Shown here one piece after another: positions 3,610-7,342 of a DNA stretch of 10,053 bases; position 1 is the stretch's first letter, and every line of letters begins with the position of its first letter. The notes under the pieces are model-generated. The model had not been told where the DNA came from and did not search any database. It saw nothing but the letters and a program-made list of their open reading frames with translations. Origin of the DNA: a virus (lineage: Duplodnaviria; Heunggongvirae; Uroviricota; Caudoviricetes); IMG/VR virus record IMGVR_UViG_2740892213_000005. The stretch is one strand, 5' to 3'. A program made the position numbers and the translations under genes.

Positions 3610-3638
3610 ATAATACGATATGTACTTTTGGAATGCAA
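3610..3638 (-). promoter_or_regulatory. pR: -35 TTGCAT, 17-bp spacer, -10 TATTAT (minus strand)
   Basis: Located about 25 nt upstream of the cro ATG; an operator dyad overlaps the spacer and -10. Confidence 0.5.
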
Positions 3639-3685
3639 ACAAAAAATACATCTTGTGCATGGATGGTTTTAGTACAGAGCGTAAT
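3612..3685. promoter_or_regulatory. OR operator region: dyads AGTAC-N5-GTAYT at 3612-3626 and AGTAC-N5-GTAAT at 3671-3685
   Basis: The same 15-bp dyad recurs at pL (4492-4506) in the same position relative to -35/-10. Confidence 0.45.
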
Positions 3686-3694
3686 AATAAGGAT

Positions 3695-4354
3695 ATGAAA
3701 ATGAAATGGTATGAACTGGCTAGATCCAGAATGAAAGAACTCGGCATAACTCAAGAGAAGTTAGCTGAAGAGCTTGGTATGACGCAGGGTGGAATTGGTC
3801 ACTGGTTGCGCGGATCTCGTCATCCATCTCTTGACGAGATTGGTGTGGTGTTTAAATACCTTGGTATTGATAACGTCTCATTCAACCACGACGGTACATT
3901 TTCACCTGTTGGCGAATACTCATCTGCCCCCGTTAAAAAACAATATGAGTACCCTGTTTTTTCTCATGTTCAGGCCGGGATGTTCTCGCCTGAGCTTAGA
4001 ACCTTTACCAAAGGCGATGCGGAGAGATGGGTCAGCACAACCAAAAAAGCCAGTGATTGTGCGTTTTGGCTTGAAGTTGAAGGTAATTCCATGACCGCAC
4101 CAACAGGATCCAAGCCAAGCTTTCCTGACGGGATGTTAATTCTCGTTGACCCTGAGCAGGCTGTTGAGCCAGGTGATTTCTGCATAGCCAGACTTGGTGG
4201 TGACGAGTTTACCTTCAAGAAACTGATCAGGGATAGCGGTCAGGTGTTCCTACAACCACTAAACCCGCAATATCCAATGATCCCATGCAATGATAGCTGT
4301 TCCGTAGTAGGGAAAGTTATCGCCAGCCAGTGGCCTGAAGAGACATTTAGTTAA
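3695..4354 (+). CDS. cI: CI-type prophage repressor (S24 peptidase family)
   Basis: C-terminal roughly 130 aa almost identical to the lambda cI C-terminal domain ([38 protein letters not shown]); N-terminal HTH domain differs. Start at 3695 or 3701; the track ORF begins at 3620. Confidence 0.85.
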
Positions 4355-4479: not shown

Positions 4480-4508
4480 TTGACTCAATAAAGTACACAT
4501 CGTACTAT
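4480..4508 (+). promoter_or_regulatory. pL: -35 TTGACT, 17-bp spacer, -10 TACTAT, with OL dyad AGTACACATCGTACT (4492-4506)
   Basis: Near-consensus sigma70 promoter about 200 nt upstream of N; operator overlaps spacer and -10. Confidence 0.6.
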
Positions 4509-4553
4509 TTAGCCATCAGCAGGAAGCTGGAAGCCAAACGGAACAGATTGGCA

Positions 4554-4588
4554 GGCTCTTTAACTTCGATGGGGCGCTGACAAAGCGC
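4554..4588 (+). promoter_or_regulatory. nutL: nutL: boxA GGCTCTTTAA (4554-4563) and boxB GCGCTGACAAAGCGC (4574-4588), P22 type
   Basis: Lies between pL and N; boxB is a 5-bp stem with GACAA loop, matching the P22 nutL boxB as I recall it. Confidence 0.75.
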
Positions 4589-4707
4589 AAACAGATACCA
4601 AACGAGATGGGTTTGGCGGTGATGTGAATTGCAGCTGCAACGACAGCAACCAGAAGATCAGCACCTGGCGCATCACCACCAAAGCCATTTCACATGAGGA
4701 AAACATC

Positions 4708-5016
4708 ATGACGGTAATCGTGTACGGAAAATCAACATTTGCAGGAAATGCCAAAACTCGCCGTCATGAGCGGCGCAGAAAGCTGGCTATCGAGCGTGAT
4801 TCCATCTGCAACATCATCGATTCGATCTTCGGCACAGACAGTGAGGAAGCTGTTCAGGAAGAACCGAGAAAGCGTTTAAGTCTTTCTGAAAAAGCAATAT
4901 CACTCGGCATCATCAGTAAATCAAATACAGATGCGAATGGCGGAAGCGTTTGTTTGCCTGAAGTTGCACTGTATGCTGCTGGTTACAGGTCAATGAAATC
5001 AATTACGGCGAGATAG
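4708..5016 (+). CDS. N: N-type transcription antiterminator (P22 gene 24-like)
   Basis: Contains the arginine-rich motif GNAKTRRHERRRKLAIER, the P22 N boxB-binding peptide; GAGGA Shine-Dalgarno upstream. The track ORF starts at 4624; the homology start is MTVIVYG. Confidence 0.85.
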   Translation: MTVIVYGKSTFAGNAKTRRHERRRKLAIERDSICNIIDSIFGTDSEEAVQEEPRKRLSLSEKAISLGIISKSNTDANGGSVCLPEVALYAAGYRSMKSITAR

Positions 5017-5285: not shown

Positions 5286-5421
5286 CCACGCTCACGCTGG
5301 TTTTTAATGACATAAATAACCGTATTTACTACCGCAAGCCACGCAGTGAAATGGGTGTGACTTGTGTTGGTCGCCAGAAAATGAAATTAGGCAGCAAACC
5401 ACTTATTTGAGAGGAATTAAT

Positions 5422-6045
5422 ATGTCATCAATCCGCTTAACTACGAGAATGAAAGAGGAAATCGCTCGTAACGCTTTAATTAAGTCTGGGGTTTTCACTG
5501 AACTTGAAGAAGTAACAAAGTTAAAGAACCAGCTTGCACTTGACGCCAGAGTTATTGCGTTTGGCGGGAAAAAGAAAACCGAAGAAGTGGACCAGCTGGC
5601 ATCAAAGTTAATGGCTGCAAGTGAGGAACTTCAAAAGCTTGGATGTTCATTTTACTCATGCGATGTCAGTTCAAGTTCGATTTATCTGACTGTATCTGGA
5701 AGAAGGGTTGGCTGGCATTCATACGGAAAAGACGGCAACGGTGAAGATATATTGCTCCCTACCCCCGACAAAGATAAATGCATGTTTGACGCAGAACACA
5801 AAATAACAAAAAGGTTTGATGAAATCTGCGCATTGCAACAAAAACTTGAAGCCAGGAAAAAGGATATCGAATCAAATGTATGGGCTGCTTTGAACTCAGT
5901 CACAACAGTTAAGCGACTTATTGAGGTCTGGCCTGAAAGCAAAGAGTTGCTACCAAAAGAAGCAGATAAAGCAAGTGCAGCACTTCCTGCTTTACGGGTA
6001 GAAGATTTGAATAAGATGATTGGACTTCCTTCCGAGGCCGCATAG
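5422..6045 (+). CDS. Hypothetical protein (207 aa), accessory gene in the pL operon
   Basis: ATG with GAGAGGAA Shine-Dalgarno; the track ORF 5362-6045 is the same frame extended upstream. No family recognised. Confidence 0.65.
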   Translation: MSSIRLTTRMKEEIARNALIKSGVFTELEEVTKLKNQLALDARVIAFGGKKKTEEVDQLASKLMAASEELQKLGCSFYSCDVSSSSIYLTVSGRRVGWHSYGKDGNGEDILLPTPDKDKCMFDAEHKITKRFDEICALQQKLEARKKDIESNVWAALNSVTTVKRLIEVWPESKELLPKEADKASAALPALRVEDLNKMIGLPSEAA

Positions 6046-6060
6046 TCGGCCTTTATTTTT
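6034..6060 (+). terminator. Hairpin with T-tract overlapping the stop codon of the 207-aa gene
   Basis: AGGCCG-(6 nt loop)-CGGCCT followed by TTATTTTT. Confidence 0.5.
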
Positions 6061-6087
6061 GGCACAAACAACAGAATAAACACTGCA

Positions 6088-6119
6088 CTGTGTATTCATT
6101 CCAACGAGTGAATACACGG
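6088..6119. repeat. Perfect 9-bp inverted repeat GTGTATTCA-N10-TGAATACAC
   Basis: Read from the sequence (6090-6098 and 6109-6117); no T-tract follows. Confidence 0.6.
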
Positions 6120-6177
6120 AGCAATGTCGCTCGTAACTAAACAGGAGCCGACTTGTTCTGATTATTGGAAATCTTCT

Positions 6178-6205
6178 TTGCCCTCCAATGTGAGGGCAAT
6201 TTTTT
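6178..6205 (+). terminator. Strong intrinsic terminator (8-bp stem TTGCCCTC/GAGGGCAA, 6-nt loop, TTTTTT) immediately upstream of the next gene's RBS
   Basis: Read from the sequence; GGAGGA Shine-Dalgarno and the ATG at 6218 follow directly. Confidence 0.6.
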
Positions 6206-6217
6206 GACGGAGGATAT

Positions 6218-7186
6218 ATGAGTGAAGTAACAGATTTAGTTGTTATTGAAAAAGCAAATGCAATGACTGTATTTCAGTCTGCCGACCAGATTGAAGAAAT
6301 CCTTCAAAAGGTTGAACGTGAAGTTATGTCCTTTGTGCCTGATATCACAACGGCAAAGGGCAGAAAGGAGATCGCTTCTCTGGCGTATAAAGTTGCGCAG
6401 ACGAAAACATATCTCGATGGTCTTGGCAAAGACCTTGTTGCTGAACTGAAGGAAATTCCAAAGCTAATTGATGCTAACCGCAAGACAGTGCGCGATCGCC
6501 TTGATGAACTGAAAACCAAGGCGCGCCAGCCTCTTACTGATTATGAGGAAGAACAGGCGCGGATTAAAGCCGAAGAAGAAGCTAAGGCAGCAGCTGAAGC
6601 TCTCGCAAAGCAAATTGAGTATGACCATGAAATAGCTATTTTGATGGATCGCGAATTTGACCGCCAAAGAGAAGAGGCAAGACTCAAAGCGGAGCAGGAA
6701 AAGCGAGAGCATGAAGAACGATTAAAAAGAGAAGCTAAAGAGAAAGCCAGAGCAGAAGCCGAAGCAAAGGCAAAAGCCGAAATTGAAGCAGCAGCAAGGC
6801 GAGAAGCAGAAGCTAAGGCCGCAGCGGAACGTGCAGAGCGTGAACGCATTGAAGCCGAGCAACGAGCACAGCGCGAAGCAAAAGAGGCAGCAGAACGAGC
6901 TGAAAGAGAAAAGCAGGCAGCAATTGAAGCAGAACGCAGAAAAGCACATGAGGAGGCTGAACGAATCCGTCGCGAGGCTGAAGCAAAAGAGCAAGCCAGA
7001 ATAGCAGAAGAAAAAAGAATCAAGGACGAAGAAGAGCGTAGAGCAAAGGATAAAGCTCACCGGAAAGAAGTAAATAACAAAATACTTGCTGACCTTATCA
7101 AGGTTGGCGCATCAGAAGATGTTGCTAAAAATATCATAACAGCCATCGTAAAAGGCGAAGTATTCGCAACAAAAATAACCTACTAA
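6218..7186 (+). CDS. Hypothetical protein (322 aa) with a long E/A/K/R-rich charged helical segment
   Basis: About 100-aa N-terminal region, then a roughly 170-aa highly charged low-complexity stretch (EAEAKAKAEIEAAARREAEAKAAAERAERER...), then a short C-terminal region. GGAGGA Shine-Dalgarno. Confidence 0.75.
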   Translation: MSEVTDLVVIEKANAMTVFQSADQIEEILQKVEREVMSFVPDITTAKGRKEIASLAYKVAQTKTYLDGLGKDLVAELKEIPKLIDANRKTVRDRLDELKTKARQPLTDYEEEQARIKAEEEAKAAAEALAKQIEYDHEIAILMDREFDRQREEARLKAEQEKREHEERLKREAKEKARAEAEAKAKAEIEAAARREAEAKAAAERAERERIEAEQRAQREAKEAAERAEREKQAAIEAERRKAHEEAERIRREAEAKEQARIAEEKRIKDEEERRAKDKAHRKEVNNKILADLIKVGASEDVAKNIITAIVKGEVFATKITY

Positions 7187-7210
7187 TAAAACCAACATAA
7201 GGAACCACCC

Positions 7211-7342
7211 ATGATTTACGCAATCGCGGGAGGCGCTCGCATGGGTGCCTTCCAATTAAATGAATCTTTACTTGAACGAATCACCCGTAAATTACGTGAC
7301 GGATGGAAAAGAGTTGAGGTCTTATTATGCGCAATGAAATAG
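7211..7342 (+). CDS. cIII: CIII-like protein (43 aa)
   Basis: Not in the ORF track (short). MIYAIAG...ESLLERITRKLRDGWKR matches the lambda CIII core as I recall it; AAGGAA Shine-Dalgarno 7 nt upstream. Confidence 0.7.
   Translation: MIYAIAGGARMGAFQLNESLLERITRKLRDGWKRVEVLLCAMK

Follow-up and report, generated by a model that had tools for sequence, protein, structure and literature searches.

A probable lambdoid PreS (LPR1) sRNA cassette in an early-left operon with P22-type N/nutL

Gene content and transcription signals of the early-left operon

The window, i.e., the whole stretch of 10,053 nucleotides analyzed here (IMG/VR record IMGVR_UViG_2740892213_000005, Caudoviricetes), contains an early-left operon region with the gene order cI, nutL, N, an 88-aa gene, an Nmad5 gene, PreS, a 322-aa gene, cIII, and kil (Table 1). 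The nutL site is located downstream of a pL-like promoter (TTGACT-N17-TACTAT, approximately 4480–4508) and upstream of the N gene, an ORF at 4624–5016 that matches the N_peptide family. Its boxB (GCGCTGACAAAGCGC) is presumably of the P22 type, judging by the P22 boxB sequence. The 207-aa Nmad5 gene occupies the position of ral in lambda, and the 322-aa gene that of ea10, with cIII and kil coming next.

A scan of positions 5300–7300 revealed no sigma-70-like promoter, and manual inspection yielded nothing beyond a single −35-like TTGGCA that has no usable −10 partner. The sequence TGGCAC at 6060–6065, which resembles a sigma-54 site, was also considered and rejected, as the −12 element is missing.

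The 170-bp region between the two accessory genes holds three hairpin structures. Two of them are followed by T-tracts; both were found by the terminator scan (7 and 8 pairs, with 5 G-C pairs each), and in mEp234 both bear annotations as rho-independent terminators. The upstream one (GAGGCCG at 6034–6040, CATAGT, CGGCCTT at 6047–6053, then TATTTTTGG) encloses in its loop the TAG stop codon of the 207-aa gene (6043–6045). At −11 kcal/mol (z = −1.8) it is unremarkable by energy alone; relatives retain it in two stem versions, with a fully compensatory change from C-G to A-U in one of them (L115), and the lambda copy is degraded to −4.7 kcal/mol. By its stem, U-run, and conserved structure it fits the definition of an intrinsic terminator, and we refer to it as terminator-like. 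The downstream hairpin, tL2a, is a strong terminator (TTGCCCTC at 6178–6185, CAATGT, GAGGGCAA at 6192–6199, and T6 at 6200–6205), followed by GGAGG (6209–6213) and the ATG of the 322-aa gene. Two relatives have a different terminator at the tL2a position, and others vary its loop and stem foot. The third structure is built on a perfect 9-bp inverted repeat that has no T-tract, GTGTATTCA (6090–6098)-N10-TGAATACAC (6109–6117). All three had been pointed out in the first-pass annotation and were read again directly; its assumption of an N-antiterminated operon likewise holds, as a P22-type nutL and an N-family protein are both present in the window.

Table 1. Features of the early-left operon discussed in the text (window coordinates)
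Feature	Position	Strand	Description	Source
nutL	4546..4588	+	boxA CTCTTTAA, boxB hairpin GCGCTGACAAAGCGC	sequence read
207-aa accessory gene	5422..6045	+	Nmad5 domain	PF18757 Nmad5, E = 1.2e-69; phrog_1965
Terminator-like hairpin	6034..6060	+	7-bp stem, then TTTATTTTT	terminator scan
GAATAA motif	6074..6079	+	directly 5′ of the extended helix; left cassette edge	
Extended hairpin	6080..6127	+	core is the 9-bp repeat	fold; lambda copy identical
PreS (LPR1) sRNA	6119..6205	+	87 nt	ortholog of lambda complement(33925..34011)
Seed region	6152..6177	+	complementary to E. coli dnaN −46 to −16	authors' primers
Intrinsic terminator tL2a	6178..6205	+	8-bp stem, 6-nt loop, U6	terminator scan; Sf6/O276 annotations
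322-aa accessory gene	6218..7186	+	Sf6 gp33-like, charged-residue-rich	phrog_1376, phrog_21365; Sf6 annotation

The PreS small RNA and its cassette

Very probably, the whole intergenic region is a lambdoid PreS (LPR1) sRNA cassette residing in an early-left operon with P22-type N/nutL. In lambda, LPR1 is encoded between ral and ea10, and its 3′ end is tL2a (Silverman et al., bioRxiv 10.1101/2024.10.31.621285; Mol Cell 2025;85:4678). It is seen as bands of ~88 and ~68 nt, is enriched with Hfq, and is expressed in the lytic cycle only (bioRxiv 10.1101/2024.10.31.621285). Pairing of PreS with the dnaN leader exposes the ribosome-binding site, which raises the beta-clamp level and stimulates replication of the phage DNA; alaS is repressed by PreS. 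Deletion of PreS cuts the phage yield 2- to 4-fold, and a target mutation that compensates for a 3-nt change in the seed rescues it (Silverman et al.).

The lambda ral–ea10 intergenic region (34087–33925) is ~97% identical to window positions 6042–6205. Within PreS itself the alignment is gapless over the whole length, with 85 of the 87 nucleotides identical; one of the two differences is a loop base, and the other replaces U.G in the lambda terminator stem by U-A. Located after N and before cIII in the early-left operon, the gene ends at tL2a, which doubles as the terminator and the Hfq-binding 3′ module of the RNA. Its 5′ end was deduced from the primers used for cloning and deletion by Silverman et al., namely GAGCAATGTCGCTCGTAACT and the one ending in TGAATACACG: they place the first nucleotide at GAGCAATG, window position 6119, and the end of the deletion arm at 6118. 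The lambda 5′ end is accordingly taken from primer design plus approximate band sizes, and the bioRxiv preprint contains no account of 5′-end mapping or of PreS biogenesis. The processed form, LPR1-S (~68 nt), would begin near 6138.

The seed region holds both the 18 nt deleted in the seed mutant of the same authors (TGTTCTGATTATTGGAAA) and the CTG triplet mutated in M1, each identical to lambda. Its predicted duplex with the dnaA–dnaN junction of K-12 (dnaN −46 to −16) has an energy of −25.0 kcal/mol (RNAduplex), and this pairing agrees with the published target region and with the M1 mutation. Hfq binding, lytic expression, and dnaN activation are expected for the present copy by sequence identity. 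The three hairpin structures jointly are this phage's copy of the described, and hence already known, lambda PreS/LPR1 gene. What was previously taken for a spacer separating the repeat from the terminator is actually the body of the RNA with its seed, that is, the main function of the locus.

The cassette sequence is matched by 331 phage records, mostly at 95–99% identity, and is found in 2239 of 5426 complete E. coli genomes, with up to six copies per genome. The phages having it number in the hundreds and include Stx phages. It is this conservation, rather than the repeat or the fold of the upstream hairpin alone, that makes the locus non-random. Perfect 9-bp repeats with a loop of 3–12 nt occur twice in the window against 0.49 expected, and at least one is seen in 31% of dinucleotide shuffles, so such a repeat is not rare by itself.

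Among the RefSeq matches listed, no annotated feature coincides with the cassette. No Rfam 15 family was assigned at the gathering score or at a permissive E-value, the best sub-threshold match being RyhB with 18 bits against a threshold of 55; as a model of the PreS sRNA apparently does not exist, this miss is not counted against membership. PreS is not mentioned in the Pas sRNA preprint, and LPR1 coordinates were not found in the RIL-seq tables. The EHEC sRNAs HnrS (66 nt) and the EcOnc/AsxR/AgvB group were rejected as candidates, since their loci lie in the late or moron region. A scan of species-representative genomes for diverged copies produced 24 matches, mostly low-coverage contigs in unrelated bacteria, which we read as spike-in contamination and discarded. 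Several of these contigs are ~48.5 kb long, the same as the lambda genome. Partial matches in PA45 and O276 were not accepted as hairpin-only or PreS-only variants, as they are explained by IS elements that interrupt PreS and the hairpin.

The hairpin at the 5′ end of PreS

The 9-bp repeat grows to 14 contiguous pairs (6088–6101 with 6106–6119) and further, through an A.A mismatch, 3 bp, a C.A mismatch, and another 3 bp, to a helix of 20 bp with two 1x1 mismatches spanning 6080–6127; the loop is CAAC. Fold energetics, suggested earlier as a check, bear the structure out: the segment 6080–6127 folds at −24.9 kcal/mol (z = −6.28), none of 200 shuffles being as stable, and the whole 191-nt stretch has z = −5.97. 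The published 5′ end of PreS, G6119, is situated in the 3′ arm, paired with C6088. In compact relatives the GAATAA motif at the base of the helix is where upstream ORFs of at least four kinds end, reading Glu-stop (GAA TAA).

The extended hairpin is identical in lambda, and the hairpin, PreS, and the terminator form one constant unit in ~200 viral contigs. Besides the hairpin described above (type A), there exists an unrelated stem, UAUAGCAGAUU-UACG-GAGUCUGCUAU (type B), of similar shape and with the same endpoint before (G)AGCAAUG. The half-sites of the two types share no sequence. As a hairpin with unrelated half-sites takes its place in the same cassette, the earlier suggestion of a protein-binding dyad is unlikely. 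Type B is almost always linked to one upstream ORF, and hence the swap may have been a single event. The scan of IMG/VR gave no type-A hairpin without a PreS start behind it. Within type A only 16 haplotypes were found, differing by isolated, dispersed changes, and this number is too small for assessing covariation statistically. Two lineages perfect the lower stem via changes on opposite arms (−30.7 and −29.0 kcal/mol); these variants could reflect template-switch mutation in a quasi-palindrome, not selection. We assign the hairpin to the sRNA gene because type A never occurs without PreS, type B has the same endpoint, and the stem-perfecting variants exist.

The possibility of an RNase III site, raised in the first-pass annotation, stays plausible and is backed by the position of the published 5′ end. 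Our tentative proposal is that the inverted repeat may be a modular RNase III excision signal that, together with tL2a, frees PreS from the N-antiterminated pL transcript. PreS would have no promoter of its own, a view based on the negative sigma-70 scan and on the four or more upstream ORFs ending directly against the helix, and would be excised from the pL transcript. The hairpin would serve as the processing signal, directing an RNase III-type event that creates the 5′ end: a staggered cut between 6090 and 6091 and between 6118 and 6119, at the center of the 22-position helix, would leave exactly the published end. The 3′ end at tL2a may arise either from polymerases that escape N modification and terminate or from trimming that stops at the terminator stem, and a later cut near 6138 would generate the shorter, more abundant form.

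The fit to RNase III was judged by qualitative rules. The 20 bp and two mismatches amount to 22 helical positions, in line with the ~22-bp helix that accommodates the RNase III dimer and is cut near its center, with 12 positions loopward and 10 baseward of the implied cut center. At in vivo RNase III sites both of the positions enclosed by the staggered cuts form pairs, a G-C usually being one of them; U6089.G6118 and G6090-C6117 of the present helix are in keeping with this. Position 6118 is polymorphic (G, T, or A), and T, found in ~39 related loci, produces a U.U mismatch. Two further points count against the overall explanation. N-modified polymerase should read through tL2a, which makes formation of the 3′ end in lytic growth hard to explain, and the intact upstream terminator should lower unmodified transcription into PreS.

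A different role for the same stem, which we regard as rather unlikely, is that of an insulator or stabilizer unrelated to RNase III, with RNase E or another single-strand endonuclease cutting at its foot. In variants of this explanation, the stem protects the 3′ end of the cleaved upstream message or acts as a shield of PreS against ribosomes and RNase E arriving from upstream. Hairpins do block exonucleases and RNase E scanning, and in compact relatives the structure directly abuts the upstream stop codon, as 3′ stabilizers do. Moreover, the step from ~88 to ~68 nt is of the kind usually credited to RNase E, and position 6118, between the cuts, tolerates a mismatch. However, G6119 is not single-stranded, being inside the continuous 14-bp stem; its context (CACG/GAGC) is G/C-rich rather than the A/U-rich single strand preferred by RNase E, and in the window the upstream gene already ends in a terminator hairpin of its own, located 37 nt upstream.

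The region is also a junction of mosaic modules, as had been supposed. The feature "bsq4; boundary sequence" of Sf6 (AF547987) corresponds exactly to window positions 6085–6197, and the cassette is indeed a short conserved non-coding block between unrelated modules in different phages. Among 201 loci, ~21 left-flank classes, two hairpin types, and ~9 right-flank classes make up 55 combinations. Left breakpoints occur at 6035, 6048, 6057, 6075, 6085, and 6119, and approximately 110 of the 121 right breakpoints at 6197–6205. Breakpoints mostly flank the cassette instead of coinciding with the repeat. Of the first-pass interpretation as a whole, the two terminator-like T-tract hairpins, the N operon, and the module junction stand; the sRNA was missed.

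One might go further and view the block as mainly a recombination boundary, in which the repeat is a DNA-level cruciform or hot spot without a role in RNA. Breakpoints gathering at both edges in so many flank combinations, the exact bsq4 annotation, and the existence in the literature of a model of mosaicism via boundary sequences favor this view, as do the multi-base changes perfecting the repeat, which resemble template-switch events in DNA palindromes. We nevertheless find it improbable. The block contains a characterized sRNA whose deletion lowers the yield 2- to 4-fold, an effect sufficient for purifying selection at the observed 95–99% identity. Recombination requires homology, not a hairpin, yet the structure is kept when type B replaces the sequence, and the terminator is likewise swapped for another terminator. 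The boundary observations are compatible with the sRNA view, as a conserved functional gene would serve recombination as a by-product.

It is very unlikely that PreS is a primary transcript of its own weak promoter in or near the hairpin, with the hairpin DNA being an operator-like dyad bound by a controlling protein of the phage or the host. TTGGCA at 6059–6064 does agree with five of six positions of the −35 consensus, A/T-rich hexamers are available at 6074–6082, and lytic-only expression implies regulation, which pL, however, accounts for. The scan accepts no sigma-70-like hexamer pair, and no hexamer with the required −11A/−7T is suitably spaced from 6119. The sequence upstream of 6085 is often replaced by unrelated coding sequence and the hairpin is replaced as well, so that promoter and operator would need re-creation at each replacement; the type-A and type-B half-sites, as noted, have nothing in common.

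Finally, an open frame from ATG 6124 to TGA 6205–6207 could encode a 27-aa peptide (MSLVTKQEPTCSDYWKSSLPSNVRAIF), with the hairpin controlling translation by sequestering GGAG (6118–6121) and AUG in its 3′ arm, but this is hardly credible, given the GGAG-ATG spacing of just 2 nt, the change of GGAG to TGAG in type-B and many type-A relatives, a C-terminus varying with the terminator variants, and the behavior of the RNA as an Hfq-dependent sRNA acting by base pairing, in which a compensating target mutation rescues the 3-nt change in the seed. Translation of this frame appears unlikely from the poor Shine-Dalgarno spacing and the unconserved motif.

Implications and comparison with known systems

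Recognition of PreS accounts for a block of ~120 bp at 95–99% identity amid a shuffled neighborhood and gives the old observation of a "boundary sequence" a functional meaning: more of the host beta clamp is made available for phage replication. Its practical value is in genome annotation. In addition, the natural swaps of the hairpin and the terminator are ready-made constructs for testing the formation of sRNA ends in an operon whose polymerase ignores terminators. If the RNase III excision model is true, PreS output would be coupled to early-left transcription with no need for a promoter, hairpin and terminator alike could be exchanged for unrelated ones while the seed is fixed, and at least one classical lambdoid "boundary sequence" would be a processed sRNA gene, not a recombination linker.

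The closest known system is lambda PreS/LPR1 itself. Both genes belong to the pL operon, where they precede cIII and are flanked by the genes at the ral and ea10 positions, and have the same seed, tL2a terminator, and upstream hairpin. In contrast to lambda, the phage studied here has P22-type N/nutL, the Nmad5 gene in place of ral, and the Sf6 gp33-like gene in place of ea10; the terminator stem contains U-A instead of U.G, and the hairpin that closes the upstream gene, degraded in lambda, is intact.

The DicF sRNA of the Qin prophage, reportedly described by Faubladier and colleagues in 1990, is likewise a small Hfq-binding RNA inside an immediate-early operon of a lambdoid prophage, is processed out of a polycistronic transcript by endonucleases, RNase III among them, and targets an essential host gene. 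However, DicF represses ftsZ, whereas PreS activates dnaN, and the two have no sequence similarity; in DicF the RNase III cut makes one 3′-end form, whereas for PreS it is proposed to make the 5′ end. StxS and lambda 6S RNA resemble PreS in that the 3′ end of a phage sRNA is a terminator otherwise overridden by an antiterminator protein. They differ from it in depending on Q and the pR′ late operon rather than on N and pL and in being primary pR′ transcripts formed by early termination at tR′, and again show no sequence similarity.

As for bsq4 of Sf6, it has the coordinates of the constant cassette and lies between mosaic modules. The concept of lambdoid boundary sequences, which is said to originate with Clark and colleagues in 2001, credits recombination for the conservation of such blocks, whereas an sRNA gene credits function.

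The intergenic region and its hairpins

The window belongs to a lambdoid phage and covers its immunity and early-left region; transcription from pL runs along the plus strand. Its nutL is of the P22 type, with boxB GCGCTGACAAAGCGC. The slot of lambda ral (restriction alleviation) is occupied by the 207-aa gene, whose Pfam match points to another function in anti-restriction or modification. The 322-aa protein has a long central stretch (residues ~110–270) with a high content of E, A, K, and R; it has no Pfam match, its PHROG matches are all of unknown function, and a homologue is labelled "TolA" in one phage record.

Features of the window in gene order
Feature	Coordinates	Strand	Remarks
S24/HTH repressor gene	3620–4354		First in gene order
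pL-like promoter and nutL			After the repressor gene; read from the sequence
N-family protein gene			After nutL
88-aa gene			Between the N-family and 207-aa genes
207-aa gene	5422–6045		Pfam Nmad5 ("nucleotide modification associated domain 5"), full length, E = 1.2e-69
Upstream hairpin, 7 bp	6034–6053	+	TAG stop of the 207-aa gene in loop; then TATTTTTGG
Intergenic region			Between the 207-aa and 322-aa genes
Perfect repeat GTGTATTCA-N10-TGAATACAC	6090–6117	+	Sequence read directly
Terminator hairpin, 8 bp	6178–6199	+	Then T6
322-aa gene	6218–7186		Similar to Sf6 gp33
cIII and kil			3' of the 322-aa gene

All three structures lie where the first-pass annotation placed them, and its structural description is accurate on reading of the sequence; both T-tract hairpins were also recovered by a pattern scan. 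The downstream terminator ends 12 nt before ATG 6218, with GGAGG at 6209–6213 in between. In the predicted fold, the perfect repeat forms the centre of an extended helix with a 4-nt loop and 14 contiguous pairs (6088–6101 with 6106–6119), followed outward by an A·A mismatch, 3 bp, a C·A mismatch, and 3 bp (−24.9 kcal/mol, z = −6.28). A perfect 9-bp repeat alone is not unusual by chance: the window has two versus 0.49 expected, and at least one occurs in 31% of shuffles. The sole other short-loop example, ATCTCGTCA-N9-TGACGAGAT, is located at 3814–3840 inside the repressor gene. The energy of the upstream hairpin is ordinary (z = −1.8). It is conservation that shows these features to be real; within-window statistics do not establish it.

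A hairpin before the shared TTTATTTTT is kept in relatives with different upstream genes, its stem being either AGGCCG/CGGCCT or AAGGCTGCC/GGTGGCCTT, the latter with the stop codon in the loop. Its variants include wobble to Watson-Crick changes and one fully compensatory change from C-G to A-U. The lambda copy is decayed (−4.7 kcal/mol). Plausibly, it is a working terminator or a 3' stabiliser of the upstream gene. Since many relatives lack it, it stands outside the constant cassette of hairpin, sRNA, and terminator.

Identity with the sRNA PreS

Matches to the intergenic region occur in 331 phage records, mostly at 95–99% identity, and 6042–6205 aligns to lambda 34087–33925, between ral and ea10. 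The downstream hairpin is annotated as tL2a in the records of phages Sf6 and O276, and both T-tract hairpins as rho-independent terminators in that of mEp234, in agreement with their first-pass reading. The literature on tL2a includes Silverman et al. (bioRxiv 10.1101/2024.10.31.621285; Mol Cell 2025;85:4678), who describe an Hfq-bound sRNA between ral and ea10, LPR1, renamed PreS, whose 3' end "corresponds to ... tL2a". It forms bands of ~88 and ~68 nt, is made in lytic, not lysogenic, growth, activates translation of dnaN, where it pairs 5' of the start codon and opens the RBS, and represses alaS; phage release falls 4-fold without PreS and 2-fold without 18 nt of its seed (bioRxiv 10.1101/2024.10.31.621285).

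The 5' end and seed of lambda PreS were placed on the window from these authors' primers, with the cloned PreS starting GAGCAATGTCGCTCGTAACT, the full-deletion arm ending ...TGAATACACG, and the seed deletion taking out TGTTCTGATTATTGGAAA (bioRxiv 10.1101/2024.10.31.621285). The 5' end falls at 6119, directly after G6118, the single base that separates it from the 3' arm of the perfect repeat, and the seed falls within 6152–6177. The primer and alignment matches thus identify the "strong terminator" as the 3' module of the sRNA, and the "spacer" between repeat and terminator as the sRNA body; the latter was missed in the earlier interpretation, which was otherwise partly right. The window seed is computed to pair with E. 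coli K-12 dnaN from −46 to −16 (−25 kcal/mol). By every sequence-level criterion testable here, the locus belongs to the PreS/LPR1 family; tL2a and bsq4 are further names for it. How PreS regulates its targets was established in lambda by others, and the present analysis shows the identity of the gene, the seed, and the predicted target complementarity.

No family in Rfam 15 matches the locus. Of 5426 complete E. coli genomes, 2239 carry it, and no feature is annotated at the RefSeq E. coli loci among the matches listed. Exact seed matches in unrelated bacteria (Shewanella, Ruegeria, Pseudomonas, Neobacillus, Kitasatospora, Bradyrhizobium, and others; loci L129, L134–L141, L143, L147, and others) lie on contigs mostly of low coverage, several of ~48.5 kb, the lambda genome length, and look like lambda DNA contamination. 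A 27-codon open frame inside PreS (6124–6207, MSLVTKQEPTCSDYWKSSLPSNVRAIF) has GGAG and ATG in the 3' arm of the hairpin; as the GGAG varies among relatives, its translation seems unlikely.

Hairpin and PreS as one cassette

We gathered ~240 viral contigs, anchoring the collection on the seed and on the 5' segment of PreS. Walking out from the seed, homology ends on the right at 6197–6205 in ~110 of 121 loci, and on the left at discrete positions (6035, 6048, 6057, 6075, 6085, and 6119). Flanks of 201 loci fall into 21 left and ~9 right classes, in 55 combinations. The constant part, 6085–6197, is exactly the "bsq4; boundary sequence" of the Sf6 record; hence, the classical boundary sequence is the hairpin plus PreS. 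The module junction proposed earlier is borne out by this label and by mosaic breakpoints on both sides of the constant part. The RBS region after tL2a (GAGGATAT; window 6206–6217, lambda 33905–33924) is common to the 322-aa gene of the window and lambda ea10, which are unrelated, so that the conserved block seems to supply translation start signals for any right-hand gene.

In 58 loci, the window-type (type A) hairpin is swapped for an unrelated one, UAUAGCAGAUU-UACG-GAGUCUGCUAU (type B), which also has a tetraloop, ends 1–2 nt before (G)AGCAAUG, and likewise pairs its lower stem with the first PreS bases; it is tied mostly to one upstream ORF. A few loci retain the hairpin and seed with another terminator (TGCCGC-N9-GCGGCA TTCTTTT) instead of tL2a. 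Among 2.9 million viral contigs, the type-A hairpin was never followed by anything but the PreS start, and PreS without an intact hairpin, or the hairpin without full PreS, was found only through IS insertions. The hairpin thus belongs to the sRNA gene and is not a free-standing element. The unit structure of the cassette is demonstrated here at the level of sequence. Phage PA45 (L123, locus 1587–2850), with a two-ORF mobile element inside PreS after the first 16 nt, is a natural PreS knock-out, and phage O276 (L124, locus 221–1200), with IS903 inside the hairpin, a natural hairpin knock-out.

Formation of the PreS ends

A pattern scan of 5300–7300 found no sigma-70-like promoter. At least four distinct small ORFs upstream of the helix in compact relatives stop at GAA TAA against its base, leaving no non-coding room for a promoter there. 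Given the lack of a promoter and the position in the pL operon, PreS probably arises by excision from the pL transcript. G6119, its 5' end as published, is paired with C6088 in the predicted helix, and the candidate event is an RNase III double cut with 2-nt 3' overhangs at 6090/6091 and 6118/6119. The centre of such cuts would have 12 helix positions loopward and 10 baseward, 22 in total, and an RNase III dimer covers 22. Both positions that would lie between the cuts are paired (U·G and G-C), as they are in ~90% of in vivo RNase III sites. Among the three roles suggested for the repeat in the first-pass annotation, this supports a putative RNase III site.

Position 6118, between the cuts, is polymorphic among relatives. 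Two lineages have a perfect lower stem (−30.7 and −29.0 kcal/mol). In contigs L061 and L148 (corresponding to window 6084–6123), paired multi-base changes make the imperfect lower stem perfect: in one contig GCACTG of the 5' arm has become GCTCCG, and in the other GGAGC of the 3' arm has become AGTGC. Such perfection may reflect template-switch mutation of quasi-palindromes rather than selection for the helix.

The 3' end is puzzling, as polymerase modified by N should read through tL2a; either some polymerase would terminate there, or longer read-through RNA would be trimmed as far as the stem. The 87-nt PreS is predicted to fold with its first six bases paired to part of the seed, and thus the cut giving the ~68-nt form may, speculatively, free the seed.

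The finding is real, yet already explained by a described sRNA gene; its residual novelty lies in the proposed 5'-end role of the hairpin and in the naturally occurring swaps of hairpin and terminator, by which that role could be tested. Compared with lambda PreS, the window copy (6119–6205) has only two differences, one in a loop and one at the foot of the terminator stem, which is U-A in the window and U·G in lambda.
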